Source: an uncultured Chloroflexia bacterium
GTDB taxonomy: Bacteria; Chloroflexota; Anaerolineae; Anaerolineales; Anaerolineaceae
Direction of reading: 5' to 3'
NCBI GenBank assembly: GCA_963806635.1
Contig: CAWDZA010000023.1
Location: 226,876 to 258,875, forward strand
Length of the DNA: 32,000 nucleotides
Position 1 is the stretch's first letter. Every line of letters begins with the position of its first letter. Below, in pieces: positions 298-6,779 of the stretch. The notes beneath the pieces are model-generated. The model was not told where the DNA came from, made no database searches, and saw nothing but the letters and a program-made list of their open reading frames with translations. A program made the position numbers and the translations under genes.

Positions 298-520
298 CGG
301 TACCTCCAATAAGCCACAACACTCGATTCTTGCGAACAAAATTATATCACCCGGAAGTTTTCGTTAAGTGAAGTGAGTGTCATCAGCAATAAATTAACAT
401 TCTGTTTTAATGTTGTCCTACATTATACAAATATCATACAACAAGCGAGAATATACAATATATGGGAGACAATTATCGTTTAATCTATACGAATAGCTGT
501 CAGAAAAAATCTTTCCTTTA

Positions 521-720
521 TGCAATATTTGCATTCAGGCGGTAATGCAGAATTTGCCTCATTGGGTAAGTGCAAAATTTGCTATTTCGCGAAGTGGAGA
601 TTTTTGCATTCAGGCGGGAAGGCAGATTTTACCCTCCGGATTCCTGCGGGCAGGATTTGCCCTCCTTAAGGATGCAGAATATGCACGTGTTAAGAGTGCA
701 GAAGTTGCACGAGATTCTAA
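521..720. repeat. Tandem direct-repeat array (iteron/centromere-like), 8 units, ~25 bp period
   Basis: Core starts at 521, 546, 571, 596, 621, 649, 673, 697. Cores: TGCAATATTTGCAT, TGCAGAATTTGCCT, TGCAAAATTTGCTA, GGAGATTTTTGCAT, GGCAGATTTTACCC, GGCAGGATTTGCCC, TGCAGAATATGCAC, TGCAGAAGTTGCAC. Confidence 0.88.
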
Positions 721-726
721 TCACTA

Positions 727-1158
727 CTAATTAACGACTTTTTCTACTGGAAGACTCCTGGATCTTTTTTTATTCCTTTTCTGATCGTCGGTATGTAAAT
801 CAGGGATTACCAGATTCCAATCATAACGCGGGCTGCGAGAAGGAGTTTTGAGCGGACCAAGATCAAGACTGCCAGCGTTGAAAGATTCCAGAAAACGAAT
901 CAAAGCCAATGTGACCAGCTGACTGGCCGGAATTGACAATCGAGTGGAAAGATCGGATATTTGATTGCGAATGTGCGGGGGCAGGTCATACGTCGCGCGC
1001 CGCTCCCGCCGGTCTGCGATCTTTTGTCGTTCCCGGGCTTTTTTCTCGCGCTCGCGCCTTGGCATCTGTGCGTCCACCTGGCGCTGCTCCATCTCCTTCA
1101 ACAATGCCGAAACTTCCGGATCTATTAAATCCCTGCGGGGAAGGTTGCTTTTAGGCAT
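727..1158 (-). CDS. Small basic protein with ribbon-helix-helix-like C-terminal segment, candidate centromere-binding partner of ParA
   Basis: N-terminal basic/charged tail, then TYDLPPHIRNQISDLSTRLSIPASQLVTLALIRFLE (RHH-like beta-helix-helix). Start overlaps the parA stop by 8 nt. Confidence 0.6.
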   Translation of the reverse strand: MPKSNLPRRDLIDPEVSALLKEMEQRQVDAQMPRREREKKARERQKIADRRERRATYDLPPHIRNQISDLSTRLSIPASQLVTLALIRFLESFNAGSLDLGPLKTPSRSPRYDWNLVIPDLHTDDQKRNKKRSRSLPVEKVVN

Positions 1159-1942
1159 CCAGCACCTCCATAAATTTGGTTAGTATCTGACGGTACCCAC
1201 CGATCCGTCTGCGGTCCTCTGGCAAGCCTTTCATGGCCAGGCAGGTGGGCGCGTATTCCCAGAGCGTCCTGCCGTACGCCGGCGCTTCGCGGACACGAGT
1301 ATCCTGCGGGATGGGCGGCCACAGGTGTCCACCAAAGGTTTGGATCAAACTCTGGAACTGCAGGTAGGTCTCGCGGGTGGTACGGTCAAAAAATGTGGGT
1401 AGAATGCAGTAACCTTCCAGGGAATGACCCCGACGCGAGAACTCACCCATACTGCGGATCACCTCCTGCAACCCATCCACAGAAAGCGAATCCATACGGG
1501 TGGGGATGACCACCCAGTTGCTGGAAAGCAACCCACTTGCATGCAGGGAATCCAGCGAGGGTGCCATATCCAGGAGGACGACATCATACCCGCCCCCTGT
1601 GATCGCCTCCAGGAACCGAACACTGCCTGAGGGGGATTTTGCAAACTCGTTCTGCACGGCCTCGGTGTGCTTATCGCCGGGAAGCACATCCAGATTCTCA
1701 CGGGCGCCAACCACAAGCGAGGGCAGATCCCTGTTTTCACAGATCAGACCGAACAGCCCCGGCGACTTTGGCAGACCCAGGGAGAGGGCCACATGTCCCT
1801 GGGAATCCATGTCCACCAACAGAACCCGCCGGCCAGCCAGCGCCAGACCGTGGGCAAGCGTAACAGCAGTGGTGGTTTTTCCAACCCCACCTTTCTGGTT
1901 TGCAAACGATACAATCTTCACAAATTCCTCATCTGACACCAC
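1151..1942 (-). CDS. parA: ParA-family partition ATPase (ParA-1)
   Basis: Deviant Walker A SFANQKGGVGKTTTAVTLAHGLA; VLLVDMDSQGH; YDVVLLDMAPSLDSL. Confidence 0.93.
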   Translation of the reverse strand: MVSDEEFVKIVSFANQKGGVGKTTTAVTLAHGLALAGRRVLLVDMDSQGHVALSLGLPKSPGLFGLICENRDLPSLVVGARENLDVLPGDKHTEAVQNEFAKSPSGSVRFLEAITGGGYDVVLLDMAPSLDSLHASGLLSSNWVVIPTRMDSLSVDGLQEVIRSMGEFSRRGHSLEGYCILPTFFDRTTRETYLQFQSLIQTFGGHLWPPIPQDTRVREAPAYGRTLWEYAPTCLAMKGLPEDRRRIGGYRQILTKFMEVLDA

Positions 1943-2158
1943 CTTAATTTTGATCGTAATTCCAAAAATAAGGGTCGCCCCTAGAAATTATAGCTGAAAA
2001 TGAAAGAAATATTCAATAAATCGCTTTGGCGACCCTGCAATACTTTCAGCGTCACCCCATAAACCCCTCATTGGCACGAATAATGCGTTATTGTAAGTAA
2101 AGGCGTGAAAATGTACGCTTCAGAGAAATAATTCCAGGATATTTGAAAAAAGATGGGA

Positions 2159-2180
2159 AAGTGTAACCGCGGTTACACTT
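2159..2180. promoter_or_regulatory. 22-bp perfect palindrome AAGTGTAACCGCGGTTACACTT, candidate partition/regulatory protein site
   Basis: Exact self-complementary 22-mer abutting the parB stop codon; its inner 14 bp recurs at 6569-6582. Confidence 0.6.
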
Positions 2181-3325
2181 CAGGATTTTTTAATCCGGGC
2201 TTTGATCAGGCGGGAAAGCTCATCCAGGCGCGTGAGGGTTTCCTGTGCCTGGCCGAGAAAAACGACCTCATCAGCCAACAGGTCAAGAGCCTGGGATTGA
2301 TCCACGGGGTCAAGCCGATTTATTGAACGGATGAATTTCAGCAGGCTGCGGCTGGCCTCGCGCCCGGGATCGCGGGGAGAGGCGGGCGGTTTGCCGGTGG
2401 ATGGAACTGGCTGTTCAGGCGAACCGGAAACCACAGAGATCTCATCGGAGGTAAGCTGGCTCTGAATGCTCACCTGGATCAGGCGCTCCCATTGACGCTC
2501 CGGGGCGGAAAGGATCTCGCGCAGAACGCGCTCCGAAAGACGGTACCGGTCGGTGAGATCAAGCAGGGGGCTGGGAAGCTGCAGAATATTCAGAAGCTGC
2601 ACCATACGCGGGCGGGTGAGCTGCATGACCGGGGTGATCTTCTCCCACAATCCGGTGGGCATGCGCTGGGAGCGCACCCTGCGGAAATATTCGTATTCGT
2701 CCTGGACGGTTTCCTCGGCGGGCATTCCCATCTCGGAAAGGATCAGCGCGGAGATCTCGCAGGCCTGCTCGACTGCCGAAGGCGGCTCGGCGTGGCGGTT
2801 TTCCAGCACCTGACGCTGGCGGGTGGGATTATCCACCACCTCAACCCGCAGAAGGGGCTCCGCGGCGGAGTGGTTCTTTACTCTTTTTAAACAGGCCGCC
2901 CAGAAGCGTCTTTCACCGGTCTCGATCTGGAAAATATAGTTCCCGTTCGGACCTTCCTTCCAGGCGCCGGTGATCGGTTTGATCTGCCCATGCTCATCGA
3001 AGGATTCGCCCATGGCAACCAGGCGTTCGACCTCGGCTTTGATCGCCGGGTCGCTGCGCGCCATATCCAGCCAGGCAGCGGCCGCCCGGTAACAGTCAAT
3101 TTTTCCTGAAAAGAAGTCCACGCGGAGGGAGGGTGGTAAAAGGCGGCGGGGTTGAAAGCGATCGGGCAGCATTTGGCTGGGAGCCAGGCGCTCGATACGC
3201 TCAACAGCAGCGATGGGGCTAAGCGCAGGGGCCAGCGGCGCTGTACCAGTGCCGGGAATGGGACTCGCGGCCTCCTGAGAGAGATCGTCGAAGGCGTTGA
3301 AACGCTTCTTATTCTGGGGGGACAT
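2180..3325 (-). CDS. parB: ParB-family protein (ParB/Srx nuclease-like domain)
   Basis: Contains QIETGERRFWAACLKRV (ParB GERR motif) and a central helical/HTH-like region; follows parA with a 26-nt gap. Confidence 0.85.
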   Translation of the reverse strand: MSPQNKKRFNAFDDLSQEAASPIPGTGTAPLAPALSPIAAVERIERLAPSQMLPDRFQPRRLLPPSLRVDFFSGKIDCYRAAAAWLDMARSDPAIKAEVERLVAMGESFDEHGQIKPITGAWKEGPNGNYIFQIETGERRFWAACLKRVKNHSAAEPLLRVEVVDNPTRQRQVLENRHAEPPSAVEQACEISALILSEMGMPAEETVQDEYEYFRRVRSQRMPTGLWEKITPVMQLTRPRMVQLLNILQLPSPLLDLTDRYRLSERVLREILSAPERQWERLIQVSIQSQLTSDEISVVSGSPEQPVPSTGKPPASPRDPGREASRSLLKFIRSINRLDPVDQSQALDLLADEVVFLGQAQETLTRLDELSRLIKARIKKS

Positions 3326-3351
3326 GCCTGGCTCCTTTCCGGTCGGGGGAG

Positions 3352-4194
3352 TTAAACCCCACTGCCGGTCCTTTCCAACACGGTGTCCACCAATGCGGCA
3401 TACTCCTGGGTGGCGCGCGAACTGGACCAGATCTGCTCCGGGCTTTTGTGCCGGGGTGGACGGAAGCTGAAAACATCCATGTGGCTGGAGTGAGCGTAGG
3501 CGAGATCGGATGCTTTATGGATGGGTGCCAGAACCTGACCCGGAAAGCGGGTACGCAGCTCAGCCAGGATTTCCTGGGCTTCCGAGCGCTGTTCCTCGCA
3601 AAGCGTGGGCAGGTAACCAAATGTCTTTAGGTCGGGTCGGAAATGAACACGAACCTGGTCGATGGTACGCTGCAGCTCCATCAGCCCGGAGACACCCAGG
3701 TAGCTGGTCTCCACAGGGATGAGGACAAGATCTGCCGCCACCAGAGCATTCACCAGCAGGTGCCCGGTGGTGGGCGGCGTATCAATGATGATATAGGCAA
3801 ACTCTTTTGCAGCCGGGGCGAGCGCGCGGGAGAGGCGGGTTTCATTCGCCATCAGGGTGGGCAACAGGTGAGCCGCCTCCACCATCGCCGGGTGCGAGCT
3901 GGGGATCACATACAAATTGGGGTGGTACTGGCTGCGCTGAGTCATTCGCAGCGCGGAGGGAGGCGGGCTTTCCAACAACAGGCTGGAAAGATTGCCGCCG
4001 CCCGGGGTGGGTTTTATACCGAAGGCCGTGGCCAGCAGCGCATGTCCCTGAGGGTCCATATCCACCAGCAGCACCTTGCCAGCCGCCCCCGACCTCCCGG
4101 AAAGTTTCAGGGATAACCCGGCAGCAAGATTCACGGCGGTGGTGGTTTTTCCCACCCCGCCTTTTTCGTTGGCGATCGTGATCGTTACTGCCAT
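3352..4194 (-). CDS. parA: ParA-family partition ATPase (ParA-2)
   Basis: MAVTITIANEKGGVGKTTTAVNLAAGLS; VLLVDMDPQGHALLATAFG; YIIIDTPPTTGHLLVNAL. Confidence 0.94.
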   Translation of the reverse strand: MAVTITIANEKGGVGKTTTAVNLAAGLSLKLSGRSGAAGKVLLVDMDPQGHALLATAFGIKPTPGGGNLSSLLLESPPPSALRMTQRSQYHPNLYVIPSSHPAMVEAAHLLPTLMANETRLSRALAPAAKEFAYIIIDTPPTTGHLLVNALVAADLVLIPVETSYLGVSGLMELQRTIDQVRVHFRPDLKTFGYLPTLCEEQRSEAQEILAELRTRFPGQVLAPIHKASDLAYAHSSHMDVFSFRPPRHKSPEQIWSSSRATQEYAALVDTVLERTGSGV

Positions 4195-4300
4195 GAGCCC
4201 TCTATATGCCTGCAGTTAAGGAAAATATACACAACTTGAATAATCATACATAAATTTCACCCCTTAGTCAATATTAGCATAACTGGGCCAAATTCAGGAA

Positions 4301-4376
4301 TAATTGCCGTAAATTTTAGAGAATATGCAATAATTACCGTAAATCCCTTGAAATTAACCGGAATTCGTGCAATAAT
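4301..4376. repeat. Direct repeats TAATTRCCGTAAAT (30 bp apart) in the divergent parA-2/AAA+ intergenic region
   Basis: TAATTGCCGTAAAT at 4301-4314 and TAATTACCGTAAAT at 4331-4344; GCAATAAT also at 4328-4335 and 4369-4376. Confidence 0.6.
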
Positions 4377-4403: not shown

Positions 4404-5228
4404 ATGTTATCTTCCATGGGCGATGAGGATTGGCGATATGCGCGTCTTGAGCGGTTGGGTTTGAAGGAAGACCCTTTCAAACTTTCGGCGGATCCGCGCT
4501 ACCTTTATCTTGGTCCGGAGCACCTCGCAGTCTACCGGCAGGCTCAGGGCGTGATCTCACGCCGGCGCGGCCTGGCGCTGATCACCGGGGATATGGGCAT
4601 GGGCAAGAGTTCGCTTGCCCGGCGTCTTTATGACGTCTATAACCCTGATGAAAACGTTAAGGTTTATTACAACCACACCGCGGCATTTAAATCGGCGATG
4701 GATGCCGCCACCCAGATATCCCAGGCGCTCGGTATCCCCCCTCAGCGCAGCTTCCAGCGCCAGATGGAAAGCCTGGAGCAAAAAATGGCCTCGGCTTACA
4801 CCGCCAAGCAAAACGTGATCATTTTACTGGACGATGCCCAGATGATGAAGCCCGAAGCCCTGGAAGTGATCCACCGGATCTACAACTTTGATTATGACGT
4901 CAAGGTTGTGCAGATCCTGGCATTCGGACAGAGCGAAATGTCGAACCTGTTCGAGACCAACAAGGCGGTGAACGCGCGCGTTTTTGTGCGCCTGGTGCTG
5001 CCACCCCTCACCCTTTCCAGCGCGTTGCAGATGGTGATGTTCCGGTTGAACGTAGCCGGGCGTAATGAGAGCATGATCGACGACGATGCCTTTGAGCTGC
5101 TCTACGAGAAGTCTCAGGGGGTTCCGCGCGAGATCACCAAATTCTGCGCCTATGCCACCGACCTCCTTCTGCAAAGCGACGCCACCACCATTGACCGAAA
5201 CATAGTTCGGGAGGCGATCAGCGCATGA
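4404..5228 (+). CDS. ExeA/GspA/TniB-like AAA+ ATPase
   Basis: LKEDPFKLSADPRYLYLGPEHLAVYRQAQGVISRRRGLALITGDMGMGKSSLARRL (Walker A), VIILLDDAQMM (Walker B); AGGAGG ribosome-binding site. Confidence 0.85.
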   Translation: MLSSMGDEDWRYARLERLGLKEDPFKLSADPRYLYLGPEHLAVYRQAQGVISRRRGLALITGDMGMGKSSLARRLYDVYNPDENVKVYYNHTAAFKSAMDAATQISQALGIPPQRSFQRQMESLEQKMASAYTAKQNVIILLDDAQMMKPEALEVIHRIYNFDYDVKVVQILAFGQSEMSNLFETNKAVNARVFVRLVLPPLTLSSALQMVMFRLNVAGRNESMIDDDAFELLYEKSQGVPREITKFCAYATDLLLQSDATTIDRNIVREAISA

Positions 5229-5551
5229 CCACCCCAACCCCCCCCAGAGCCGCCTGGGTTCAGCTCTATGAAGCCAGGCGGGTTACAAGCGAGCCTGTTA
5301 CCCGTACCGCCGGGCGACCACCGGCATCCGTTCCCCGCCGCAAAGTGGGACTTACCCTCTCCCAGGGAGAGATCACCGAAATTGACGAATGGCAGCAGCG
5401 CTTTGCCGTCCTGCTGAAGCGCAAAGTCTCCGATGGCGAGACCGTTGGCATCCTGGTGCGCATCTGTACCGCCCGACTGAACCGCGTGGGCGAAGCAGAA
5501 AGCACCGGCGGTCTGTCAGCTTTTGTTGAAAAACTGATCGAGGCCGAGTAA
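5225..5551 (+). CDS. Small hypothetical protein, possibly RHH/DNA-binding, translationally coupled to the AAA+ ATPase
   Basis: ATGA overlap with upstream stop; RKVGLTLSQGEITEIDEWQQRFAVLLKRKVSDGETVGILVRICTARL is compatible with a short DNA-binding fold. Confidence 0.55.
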   Translation: MTTPTPPRAAWVQLYEARRVTSEPVTRTAGRPPASVPRRKVGLTLSQGEITEIDEWQQRFAVLLKRKVSDGETVGILVRICTARLNRVGEAESTGGLSAFVEKLIEAE

Positions 5552-5594
5552 TTGTTTCTTCCATAAAACACCCACATTAACGGAAGAAACAATT
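5550..5594. repeat. 13-bp perfect inverted repeat AATTGTTTCTTCC / GGAAGAAACAATT with 19-nt loop
   Basis: Arms 5550-5562 and 5582-5594, starting within the stop codon of the preceding ORF. Confidence 0.75.
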
Positions 5595-5704
5595 GAAAAT
5601 AAAAACCTTAACAAATCTTAAGATGGACGCCAGGTAGTAAAGGGGAGTAATCCCATCAAGAAAGAGCAAGCAGAAAAAGGATTTTAAGGCGAGAGAAACC
5701 AGTC

Positions 5705-6572
5705 ATGACCGATGCCGGCCGGCCAACCCAAACACACCCGAATCAGCGCGACGCCTGGCAGATCGTGCTTGGTCAGCTTCAGGCAGAGATGGCTCGCACC
5801 ATGTTCGAGACCTGGGTACAGCCCCTGCGTGTGGTCAATTTCCAGGATGGCGTTTTTACCCTGGGGGCGTTCAATCCCTTTGCCCGCGACTGGGTGCTCA
5901 ATCGGCTTAAAAAGCCGAATCACCCAACTTCTAGGCGCGGTCTATGCGGAGCCGGTGGAACTGCAGGTGGTGGTGATAAATGAGTTCTATCGCCCAGAGC
6001 AGACCCTGAGCTCAAGTACCCCGCCGACGAAAAACAAAGAAGGCGCAGAAAACCGGGTGGAAGTTTCGGAACCTGAGGAAAAGATCCAGATTCCGAACAA
6101 CCGCAAGATGATGCTGCAACGGGCATATGGGTCCCGGCGCGCCAAACTCATCGAACCGGAACGCGGCATGTTCGTAACGCTTTACTCCTTTTATAGCTGG
6201 CTGCCCCTGCTCGGTCATTCAGCTTATGCCACCATTCTGGCCGCCCGCTCACTTTGTTACTGGAACCCGATGACCGGTGAGCTGCGCAACGTGATCGAAA
6301 CCGATATGGCCGAGCTGGCCAGCCGCGCCGCGGTGAGCGTCCGCACGGTCAAAGATGTTCTTTCAAACGACCTGGTGCGGCTATACTTTCTGCGCTACAG
6401 AGTGCGCCGGATCATCACCCCCAACGGAGTACGAACCGCGGGCATTTCCTTGCAGGTACGCATGGACGATCCGCTCACCCCCCAGGACCAGGAGCTGAGC
6501 GGGTTGACCGAAACCGAACCCTGGTGTTCCCCCGATTTTGAGACGGACGAGGAACTGGACCGCGATCTGTAA
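5705..6572 (+). CDS. DnaA domain I-like plus winged-helix replication-initiator-like protein, interrupted by an apparent frameshift near 5917-5925
   Basis: Frame 1: WQIVLGQLQAEMARTMFETWVQPLRVVNFQDGVFTLGAFNPFARDWVLNRLKK (DnaA N-terminal-like). It continues in frame +1 as RITQLLGAVYAEPVELQVVVINEFYRPEQ...ELASRAAVSVRTVKDVLSNDLVRLYFLRY (HTH). The junction lies at AAAAA. Confidence 0.6.
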
Positions 6573-6582
6573 CCGCGGTTAC
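6569..6582. promoter_or_regulatory. 14-bp palindrome GTAACCGCGGTTAC overlapping the initiator stop codon
   Basis: Exact copy of the inner 14 bp of the palindrome at 2159-2180. Confidence 0.6.
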
Positions 6583-6779
6583 GGATTTCCGGCAGGGCAG
6601 GATGTTTTCTTCTTCAATTATATTAATGCGCATAGGTATATTGTCTTTTCTGTGTCTATTCAGTTAATACGTTTCGTGCTTTGACGACGGTTTCACGAAT
6701 GAACAGAGGATCCACTCTTGGTTTAGGGTTTTAGAAAGAGAGTTTTCGTACGGAATAATTTTGCAGGAAACGGGAGGGT

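Follow-up and report, generated by a model that had tools for sequence, protein, structure and literature searches.

An eight-unit array of ~25-bp repeats in the window (the whole 32,000-nucleotide stretch of DNA that was analyzed) is, as judged from sequence comparisons, a real and conserved candidate protein-docking cassette of a replication/partition hub carried by secondary replicons (megaplasmids) of the Anaerolineaceae. It lies downstream of the genes for a small ParA (ParA1) and a small RHH-like protein (p143), in a module of ~6.5 kb that is conserved in many Anaerolineaceae and has five or more distinct cis motifs, along with three to four candidate sequence-specific proteins (Table 1). 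The rest of the window consists of metabolic genes.

TABLE 1 Genes and motifs of the module, in window coordinates
Feature	Position	Strand	Remarks
M5 motif ATTCGTATAGATTA	481..494	-	Just past distal array end; second, inverted copy at ~6626-6636 (+)
M1 array	515..715	-	Eight cores: 521-533, 546-558, 571-583, 596-608, 621-633, 649-661, 673-685, 697-709
AT-rich leader	710..745	-	Between RHH gene and unit 1; TAAGTNGTT-type repeats; partly inside ORF 3' end here
p143, RHH-like, 143 aa	727..1158	-	Ribbon RRATYDLP; no Pfam match of its own above threshold
ParA1 (263 aa)	1151..1942	-	Small Walker-type ParA, without N-terminal DNA-binding extension
ParA1 promoter, M2 operator motif	1969..2059	-	AGGGGCGACCCT, perfect copy 1971-1982; degenerate copies 2026-2037, 2048-2059
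ParA1 promoter elements	-10 TATAAT 1992-1987; -35 TTGAAT 2016-2011	-	
M3 palindrome TGTAACCGCGGTTACA, 16 bp	2162..2177 and 6568-6583	.	2 matches versus 0.02 expected
ParB-like protein	2180-3325	-	Second partition operon, 2180..4194; Pfam and NCBIfam
ParA2	3352-4194	-	Second partition operon, 2180..4194; Pfam and NCBIfam
ExeA-like AAA_22 ATPase (AAA22)	4404-5228	+	First gene of putative replication operon, 4404..6572
p108, 108 aa	5225-5551	+	Overlaps AAA_22 gene end; ribbon RKVGLTLS
p286, DnaA domain I + HTH	5706-6572	+	Frameshifted by extra A at ~5908-5912

Architecture and conservation of the array

An earlier note on this DNA had described eight units of ~25 bp with cores starting at 521, 546, 571, 596, 621, 649, 673, and 697, and all of them were recovered exactly there. 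By window coordinates the successive spacings are 25, 25, 25, 25, 28, 24, and 24; read in the sense of the RHH gene (minus strand), they are 24, 24, 28, 25, 25, 25, and 25. TRF analysis of the window reported repeats at 520-630 (period 25, 4.4 copies) and 666-711 (period 24, 1.9 copies), and a repeat-family search returned ATGCAGAATTTGC in five copies, as near-identical 13-mers. The 12-mer TGCAGAATTTGC (with at most two mismatches) matched 13 times in the 32-kb window, six times inside 521-708; shuffled controls gave a mean of 3.9 matches, and 0 of 100 shuffles reached 13. A 25-nt weight matrix was then built iteratively from 563 units of homologous loci (gene-sense consensus, CCAGAATGCAAATTTTGCACTCAGG). 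With this matrix the eight window units scored between 13.7 and 26.5 bits, and the best match elsewhere in the window scored 13.2.

Inspection of the units revealed that the core is a 13-bp dyad, TGCA-N5-TGCA. The dyad had been called weak, but this description has to be dropped, as the palindrome is perfect in units 521, 673, and 697; in most of the distal units it is incomplete. There is a second conserved element, C(A/T)GGCC(A/T)G, to which the shared linker TTCAGGCGG belongs. This palindrome lies, in distal units, 12.5 bp from the center of the TGCA dyad. Information is spread over the whole 25 bp of the unit (dyad plus CWGGCCWG), and all units have the same orientation.

The array had been placed a few nucleotides from the stop of the RHH-like gene. 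It is indeed close by, and the gap from the end of the gene-proximal core (709) to the p143 stop codon (727-729) is 17 nt. The gap is this short in the window because the 143-aa ORF reads through a conserved AT-rich leader; in ~60 homologous loci, the array starts 30 to 50 nt past the p143 stop codon. The leader columns are near-invariant in an alignment of 56 loci, and the leader is a short stretch, of 45 nt, with a mean GC content of 28% versus a locus mean of 53.5%. At 727-765 of the window, the ORF runs ~12 codons into this conserved DNA. The resulting C-terminal tail (...SLPVEKVVN) of the window p143 is probably nonfunctional as protein sequence, because most p143 homologues are shorter (129 to 137 aa). 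We also observed (T/G)CG(T/C)ATAG motifs as an inverted pair at the two outer edges of the 6-kb module; they may serve as a boundary, in recombination, or as a further binding site.

Searches returned 859 homologues of p143, and those with a source name were all from Anaerolineae. A scan with one genome per species yielded 80 homologous loci. The earlier note had counted a lack of conserved repeats in such loci toward refutation of its proposal, but conserved they are: the 25-nt matrix detected an array of 6 to 11 units, downstream of the same small RHH-like gene, in ~60 of the 80 Anaerolineae loci. Matrix matches numbered 1052 in the 92.7 kb near arrays versus 180 in 478 kb elsewhere. The architecture was fixed: among 59 arrays, the first two spacings were 24 (56/59 each), the third was 28 (48/59), and all later ones were 25. 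The modal unit number in these arrays was 9; the 8 units of the window follow this pattern. In homologous arrays, the perfect TGCA-N5-TGCA is typically found in the first two units. The 56-locus alignment revealed positional homology over the whole array, unit-specific linkers included, such that linkers vary between the units of one array yet are conserved by position between species. This position-by-position conservation persists where the RHH protein is only 50 to 77% identical to that of the window, and ten independent samples of the window's own species carried an identical 8-unit array. To judge by this fixed spacing, the positional homology, and the identity among the ten samples, the array is a structured cis element under selection rather than a repeat of variable number.

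Genes and regulatory motifs around the array

Pfam analysis of ParA1 revealed an AAA_31 domain (E value, 6e-33) and a CbiA match, and the motif KGGVGKT is present near the N terminus. The closest solved relative is the 1wcv chain, annotated as "segregation protein" (E value, 3.8e-32), which we take to be Thermus Soj. The ParA1 and p143 genes overlap by 8 nt and are translationally coupled. Pfam RHH_3 matched 12 of the 27 members of the p143 family (best E value, 4e-7), the window protein itself reaching only 0.063. The AF2 monomer model of p143 (pLDDT, 77.6) has a helix-helix arrangement at residues 61 to 95, as expected of two RHH helices. A Foldseek search of this model against the PDB gave nothing below an E value of 2; MatP and VapB appeared as noise-level matches only and were rejected as fold relatives. 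A profile search of PDB sequences with p143 found nothing. No terminator was predicted between the RHH stop codon and the array.

The copy of AGGGGCGACCCT nearest the ParA1 gene is perfect in the window, and in nearly all homologous loci three to five copies of this motif bracket the -35 and -10 elements. The array motif TGCA-N5-TGCA was not found in the ParA1/RHH promoter across homologous loci, AGGGGCGACCCT being a different motif. A weak array-like core in the window's promoter (TGCAATACTTTCA, at 2036) is unconserved and was rejected.

The two copies of TGTAACCGCGGTTACA sit at the stop codons of the ParB-like gene and of the DnaA-domain-I gene (p286). Across loci, this palindrome was confined to those with the ParB-like gene, some of which have three to six copies, and it was absent from Leptolinea-type loci. 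We regard it as a probable new parS-type site for the ParB-like protein. TGTAACCGCGGTTACA also scores as a bidirectional terminator-like hairpin.

In the putative replication operon, p108 looks from its primary structure like a second RHH-like protein, and it has neither Pfam nor NCBIfam matches. The pair of AAA_22 and a small protein is kept in every arrangement examined, a sister clade included. Inspection of the p286 gene revealed one extra A in an A5 run (GGCTTAAAAAGCC) that splits the gene between two frames; when one A was removed, the result was a 288-aa protein that aligned end to end with its homologues. The frameshift is either a sequencing error or the mark of a recent pseudogene. 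The C-terminal HTH-like domain of p286-type DnaA_N proteins is highly conserved, and the AF2 model of this domain of p286, made from the single sequence, was unusable (pLDDT, 33). The divergent promoter between ParA2 and AAA22 has a conserved motif of its own across loci, AATTAGCGTAATT-like and present in ~3 copies upstream of the -35 element, which is probably the operator of the AAA22-p108-p286 operon. No array-like sites were conserved across loci in the AAA22/p108/p286 promoter. Among the window's candidates in the AAA22/ParA2 divergent promoter, the GCAATAATTGCC look-alikes are unconserved and GTGCAATAAT is an extended -10 element, and they were rejected. The window has in this promoter, at 4299-4344, two 16-bp direct repeats, AATAATT(G/A)CCGTAAAT, located 30 bp apart, of which the AATTAGCGTAATT-like motif is the form conserved across loci.

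Natural variants and replicon context

Leptolinea-type loci lack ParA2, the ParB-like gene, and TGTAACCGCGGTTACA but keep ParA1, p143, the array, and AAA22-p108-p286. As the array is kept without the ParB-like gene, the ParB-like protein is excluded as the array reader. In the metagenome contig L104, M5, an array of eight good units, and the leader adjoin TGTAACCGCGGTTACA and the ParB-like gene; the contig has ParA2, the ParB-like gene, AAA22, p108, and p286 and has no ParA1-p143. Bellilinea-type loci (L125, L127, and L129) keep ParA1, p143 with an identical ribbon, the promoter motif, ParA2, the ParB-like gene, AAA22, p108, and the DnaA_N protein, and neither array nor leader was found in them within 10 kb on either side. 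Directly past the RHH stop codon they carry three CGTATAG-type (M5) repeats with a 13-bp spacing. In array-less loci the AT-rich leader is gone together with the array. The array and ParA1-p143 are separable in both directions, which counts against an obligatory pairing of centromere and partner.

In the sister clade, the RHH ribbon is YHTTYDIP instead of QRATYDLP, and GGGTCTACCC replaces GGGGCGACCC in the ParA promoter and is also found at other promoters. The central bases of the promoter motif change from GCGA in the main clade to TCTA along with the ribbon, and L078 has a third ribbon/motif pair. Since the p143 and p108 ribbons both differ between the main and sister clades, covariation alone cannot assign the reader of the promoter motif. 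No TGCA array was found within 10 kb in the sister clade, where an inverted pair of GGGTCTACCC lies directly past the RHH stop codon; in Leptolinea-type loci, the pair of the promoter motif comes after the array. Because the operator pair trails the array in Leptolinea-type loci and the RHH stop codon in the sister clade, leader and array give the impression of an inserted cassette that separates the RHH gene from the site ancestrally downstream of it. A further rule, that the array occurs only where a P22_AR_N gene is absent, held for five arrangement types but failed in L132 and L133, which have both.

One homologous locus is on a complete plasmid, the 212,187-bp replicon of Leptolinea sp. 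HRD-7 (AP024711.1), and the module was also found in the genome of Ornatilinea apprima P3M-1; no further plasmid with these genes was found in PLSDB. The array motif forms a single cluster on the HRD-7 plasmid, namely, the array, at 191,332-191,582. Cumulative G-C reaches its global minimum at 191,076 and peaks at 79,039, which divides the plasmid into arms of ~100 and 112 kb, and the array lies 250 bp from the minimum. Three of four further contigs (L132, which is O. apprima, L133, and L135) have local skew V-points less than 1 kb from the array; L134, the closest long relative of the window, showed no skew switch at the array. The DnaA box TTATCCACA (up to one mismatch) was not enriched, at 0.17/kb near arrays versus 0.22/kb elsewhere. 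The gene for the DnaA_N and HTH protein is 5 kb from the array in window-type loci and ~5.4 kb from it on the HRD-7 plasmid, and in Leptolinea-type loci the AAA22 start is 1.2 to 2.5 kb away.

Four distant loci from three lineages (L118, L119, and L120/L121) encode long forms of the DnaA_N and HTH protein, of 644 to 677 aa, with homology in the C-terminal domain (BLASTP E value, 8e-8). Each long-form gene contains a tandem repeat: 22 bp in 8.7 copies at 9731-9922 of L118, 24 bp in 5.5 copies at 4578-4706 of L119, and 22 bp in 5.8 copies at 11282-11410 of L120 and 2508-2636 of L121. The repeats begin right past the end of the HTH domain (...DEPL) and differ in sequence between lineages. Two of the three periods, at 22 bp, cannot be divided by 3, which places the periodicity at the DNA level. 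By analogy, these in-gene repeats look like origins embedded in the initiator gene. Comparison of the L118, L119, and L120 repeats with the array matrix gave no convincing sequence likeness. In L120/L121, a ParA-RHH operon lies directly upstream of the long-form gene, with 12-bp GGTAGCC/TATAGG repeats in between. In these lineages, long repeats accompany the initiator-like gene and short repeats come after the RHH gene.

Candidate roles of the array and comparison with known systems

The GC skew of the HRD-7 plasmid and the tandem repeats inside distant DnaA-domain-I homologues strengthen the reading of the array, with its AT-rich leader, as an iteron-type array at or right beside a replication origin. 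The conservation of the array, its separability from ParA1-RHH, the unlike motif of the ParA1 promoter, the local skew V-points of L132, L133, and L135, and an anatomy of one-way units informative over all 25 bp next to a leader of 28% GC also speak for it. We hold this to be somewhat likelier than a centromere, its chances falling a little short of even. Initiator-like machinery (the DnaA-domain-I and HTH protein, the ExeA-like AAA+ ATPase, and the 108-aa protein) would assemble on the repeats, the adjacent conserved leader would melt, and DnaA domain I would recruit the host helicase, while the ParA1/RHH pair would use the AGGGGCGACCCT sites as an operator and probably also as its own centromere. 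Both the protein that would bind the array and the firing of replication by the array are what we infer. A more specific proposal, advanced tentatively, is that array and leader are the origin of an undescribed Chloroflexota megaplasmid replication system, whose initiator would combine DnaA domain I with a private HTH and would have as partners an ExeA-like AAA+ ATPase and one small RHH-like protein; the cassette would be mobile, being inside the initiator gene in the long forms, behind the partition operon in this clade, and lost or replaced in Bellilinea-type loci. An origin sits less easily with the Bellilinea-type loci, where the DnaA_N protein keeps an unchanged HTH although no array lies within 10 kb on either side, and with the window itself, where the array is 5 kb from p286 and immediately beside the RHH gene, as a centromere classically would be. 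Nor does the AAA22/p108/p286 promoter contain array-like sites; DnaA boxes are unenriched, the 25-bp spacing is a non-integral number of helical turns, and the long-form gene repeats are unlike the array in sequence. L134 has no skew switch at its array, and GC skew cannot tell an origin from a centromere that adjoins one. The earlier note had offered a centromere or iterons and favored a ParA-1/RHH centromere. Its broader idea, a cis-acting protein-binding array of a replicon-maintenance locus, draws strong support from the comparison of ~60 species and from a complete plasmid, but the favored centromere, in which p143 dimers of dimers would bind each TGCA-N5-TGCA core and ParA1 would move the resulting higher-order complex, meets four difficulties and is on balance unlikely. 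The type Ib proteins normally read the same repeat in centromere and operator, and here the promoter motif is unrelated to the array and is the one to covary with the RHH ribbon in sister clades; in the Bellilinea clade, ParA1-RHH persists with its ribbon unaltered, and neither array nor leader lies within 10 kb on either side; downstream of ParA-RHH, the sister clade and L120/L121 have short repeats of the GGGTAG type instead of a TGCA array; and the array of L104 is intact without ParA1-RHH. What speaks for a centromere is the placement of the array 30 to 50 nt past the RHH stop codon in ~60 species and two different gene arrangements, a number of repeats (eight to ten) that suits a partition complex, and the uniqueness of the array on the HRD-7 plasmid. 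The p143 ribbon QRATYDLP and the CopG ribbon KRLTITLS have the base-contacting R2 and T4 in common, and the core has the exact geometry of the CopG RHH site, 13 bp spanning two TGCA (PMC3413123). The promoter motif, moreover, could belong to p108 instead, whose ribbon is also different in the sister clade.

That the array docks or titrates p108 (with AAA_22) or a host protein, in an accessory role (copy-number control, incompatibility, pairing, or condensation) that initiation and partition could both do without, appears improbable. Bellilinea-type replicons do dispense with the array although their module has all of its protein genes, among the ribbons of the module RKVGLTLS of p108 comes nearest to the KRLTITLS of CopG, which reads TGCA dyads, and the alternation of TGCA-N5-TGCA and CWGGCCWG palindromes 12.5 bp apart allows two binders. 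Titration or handcuffing, however, needs a second set of motifs, and the HRD-7 plasmid was found to have none outside the array; loci without the array show no change in the p108 ribbon, the motif of the AAA22 promoter is a further one, of the AATTAGCGTAATT type, and such a role alone leaves the strict architecture across many species unexplained. The conservation pattern effectively refutes a chance or neutral tandem duplication, and likewise an RNA-level element (3' UTR hairpins). The gene-proximal cores could form 5-bp hairpins, and transcripts would meet no predicted terminator between the RHH stop codon and the array, but positions are conserved in spite of 50 to 77% RHH identity, the copy number is constant in ten samples, distal units lose the dyad without compensatory changes, and no Rfam family matched. 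The main objection to every model is the loss of the array in Bellilinea-type loci with unchanged DNA-reading residues, an objection that dissolves if the array is elsewhere on those replicons.

The array is not a categorically new kind of element, and it was compared with several known ones. Lambda, P1, and F have iteron origins, ori-lambda lying inside gene O. Like ori-lambda and P1/F-type origins, the array has same-orientation repeats of ~20 to 25 bp in 5 to 10 copies, an AT-rich neighbor, and a skew minimum; its eight units with a 24/25-bp period fall within the usual description of iterons as at least four same-orientation repeats of ~17 to 25 bp. The module, like that of ori-lambda, includes an initiator-like gene, and distant homologues of this gene carry in-gene repeats, as does lambda O. 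Unlike these origins, the module encodes no Rep_3, RepA, RepC, or lambda-O-type initiator, the candidate being the protein with DnaA domain I and HTH and its ExeA-like AAA+ partner. The array also differs in lying 5 kb from the candidate initiator and abutting a partition operon, in combining a 24- to 25-bp period with an internal dyad, and in showing no enrichment of DnaA boxes. A cognate initiator would be expected to have its gene adjacent and iteron-like sites in its promoter, and the array locus has neither arrangement.

Among partition loci, the RHH proteins of pB171 par2 and pSM19035 delta/omega read the same short repeat (4 to 7 bp) in centromere and operator, and ParG likewise reads one such repeat in both (PMC3413123). 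The array locus resembles type Ib loci (TP228 parFGH, pB171 par2, and pSM19035 delta/omega) in its small Walker ParA, followed by a coupled small RHH-like protein, and in a repeat array that flanks the operon. It departs from them in that its operator and array motifs are unrelated, its units are 25 bp long, and its array is lost or kept independently of the operon. Of the traits of type Ib, the small ParA is found here, and neither a shared operator and centromere motif nor obligatory co-occurrence is. F sopC consists of tandem repeats, each with an inverted repeat, downstream of a parA-parB-type operon; its units are 43 bp long, vary little among themselves, and are the target of an HTH ParB. 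The array shares with sopC tandem units with an internal dyad downstream of a partition operon, but its linkers vary between the units of an array and are position-conserved between species. [quoted passage not shown] The array cores at 521, 673, and 697 match it as 13-bp elements with two TGCA; the CopG site, however, is a single operator that overlaps a promoter, whereas the array has 8 to 10 units outside any promoter.

A literature search found no experimental work on the replication and segregation of Chloroflexota replicons. Identification of the array reader would establish a new iteron/initiator family or else a centromere of type Ib-like character that is uncoupled from its operator. 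The locus could further yield an origin and a stability cassette as parts for genetic tools, of which the phylum has hardly any at present.

Two observations concern 19-bp repeats. The 19-mer TGTGACAAATTGCCCTCAG, confirmed as a tandem repeat in IncF plasmids, is presumably the RepE iteron of the F plasmid; a likeness of this 19-mer to the array matrix was rejected as not significant (a fraction of 0.18 of shuffles). In the sister-clade locus L086, a 19-bp repeat in 3.7 copies (AGCGCTGCCGCTGTAGATC) was observed at 5278-5363, between the AAA_22/small-protein pair and an AAA_25 gene, with a primase-like gene next to the latter. These are possibly the origin repeats of that replicon.
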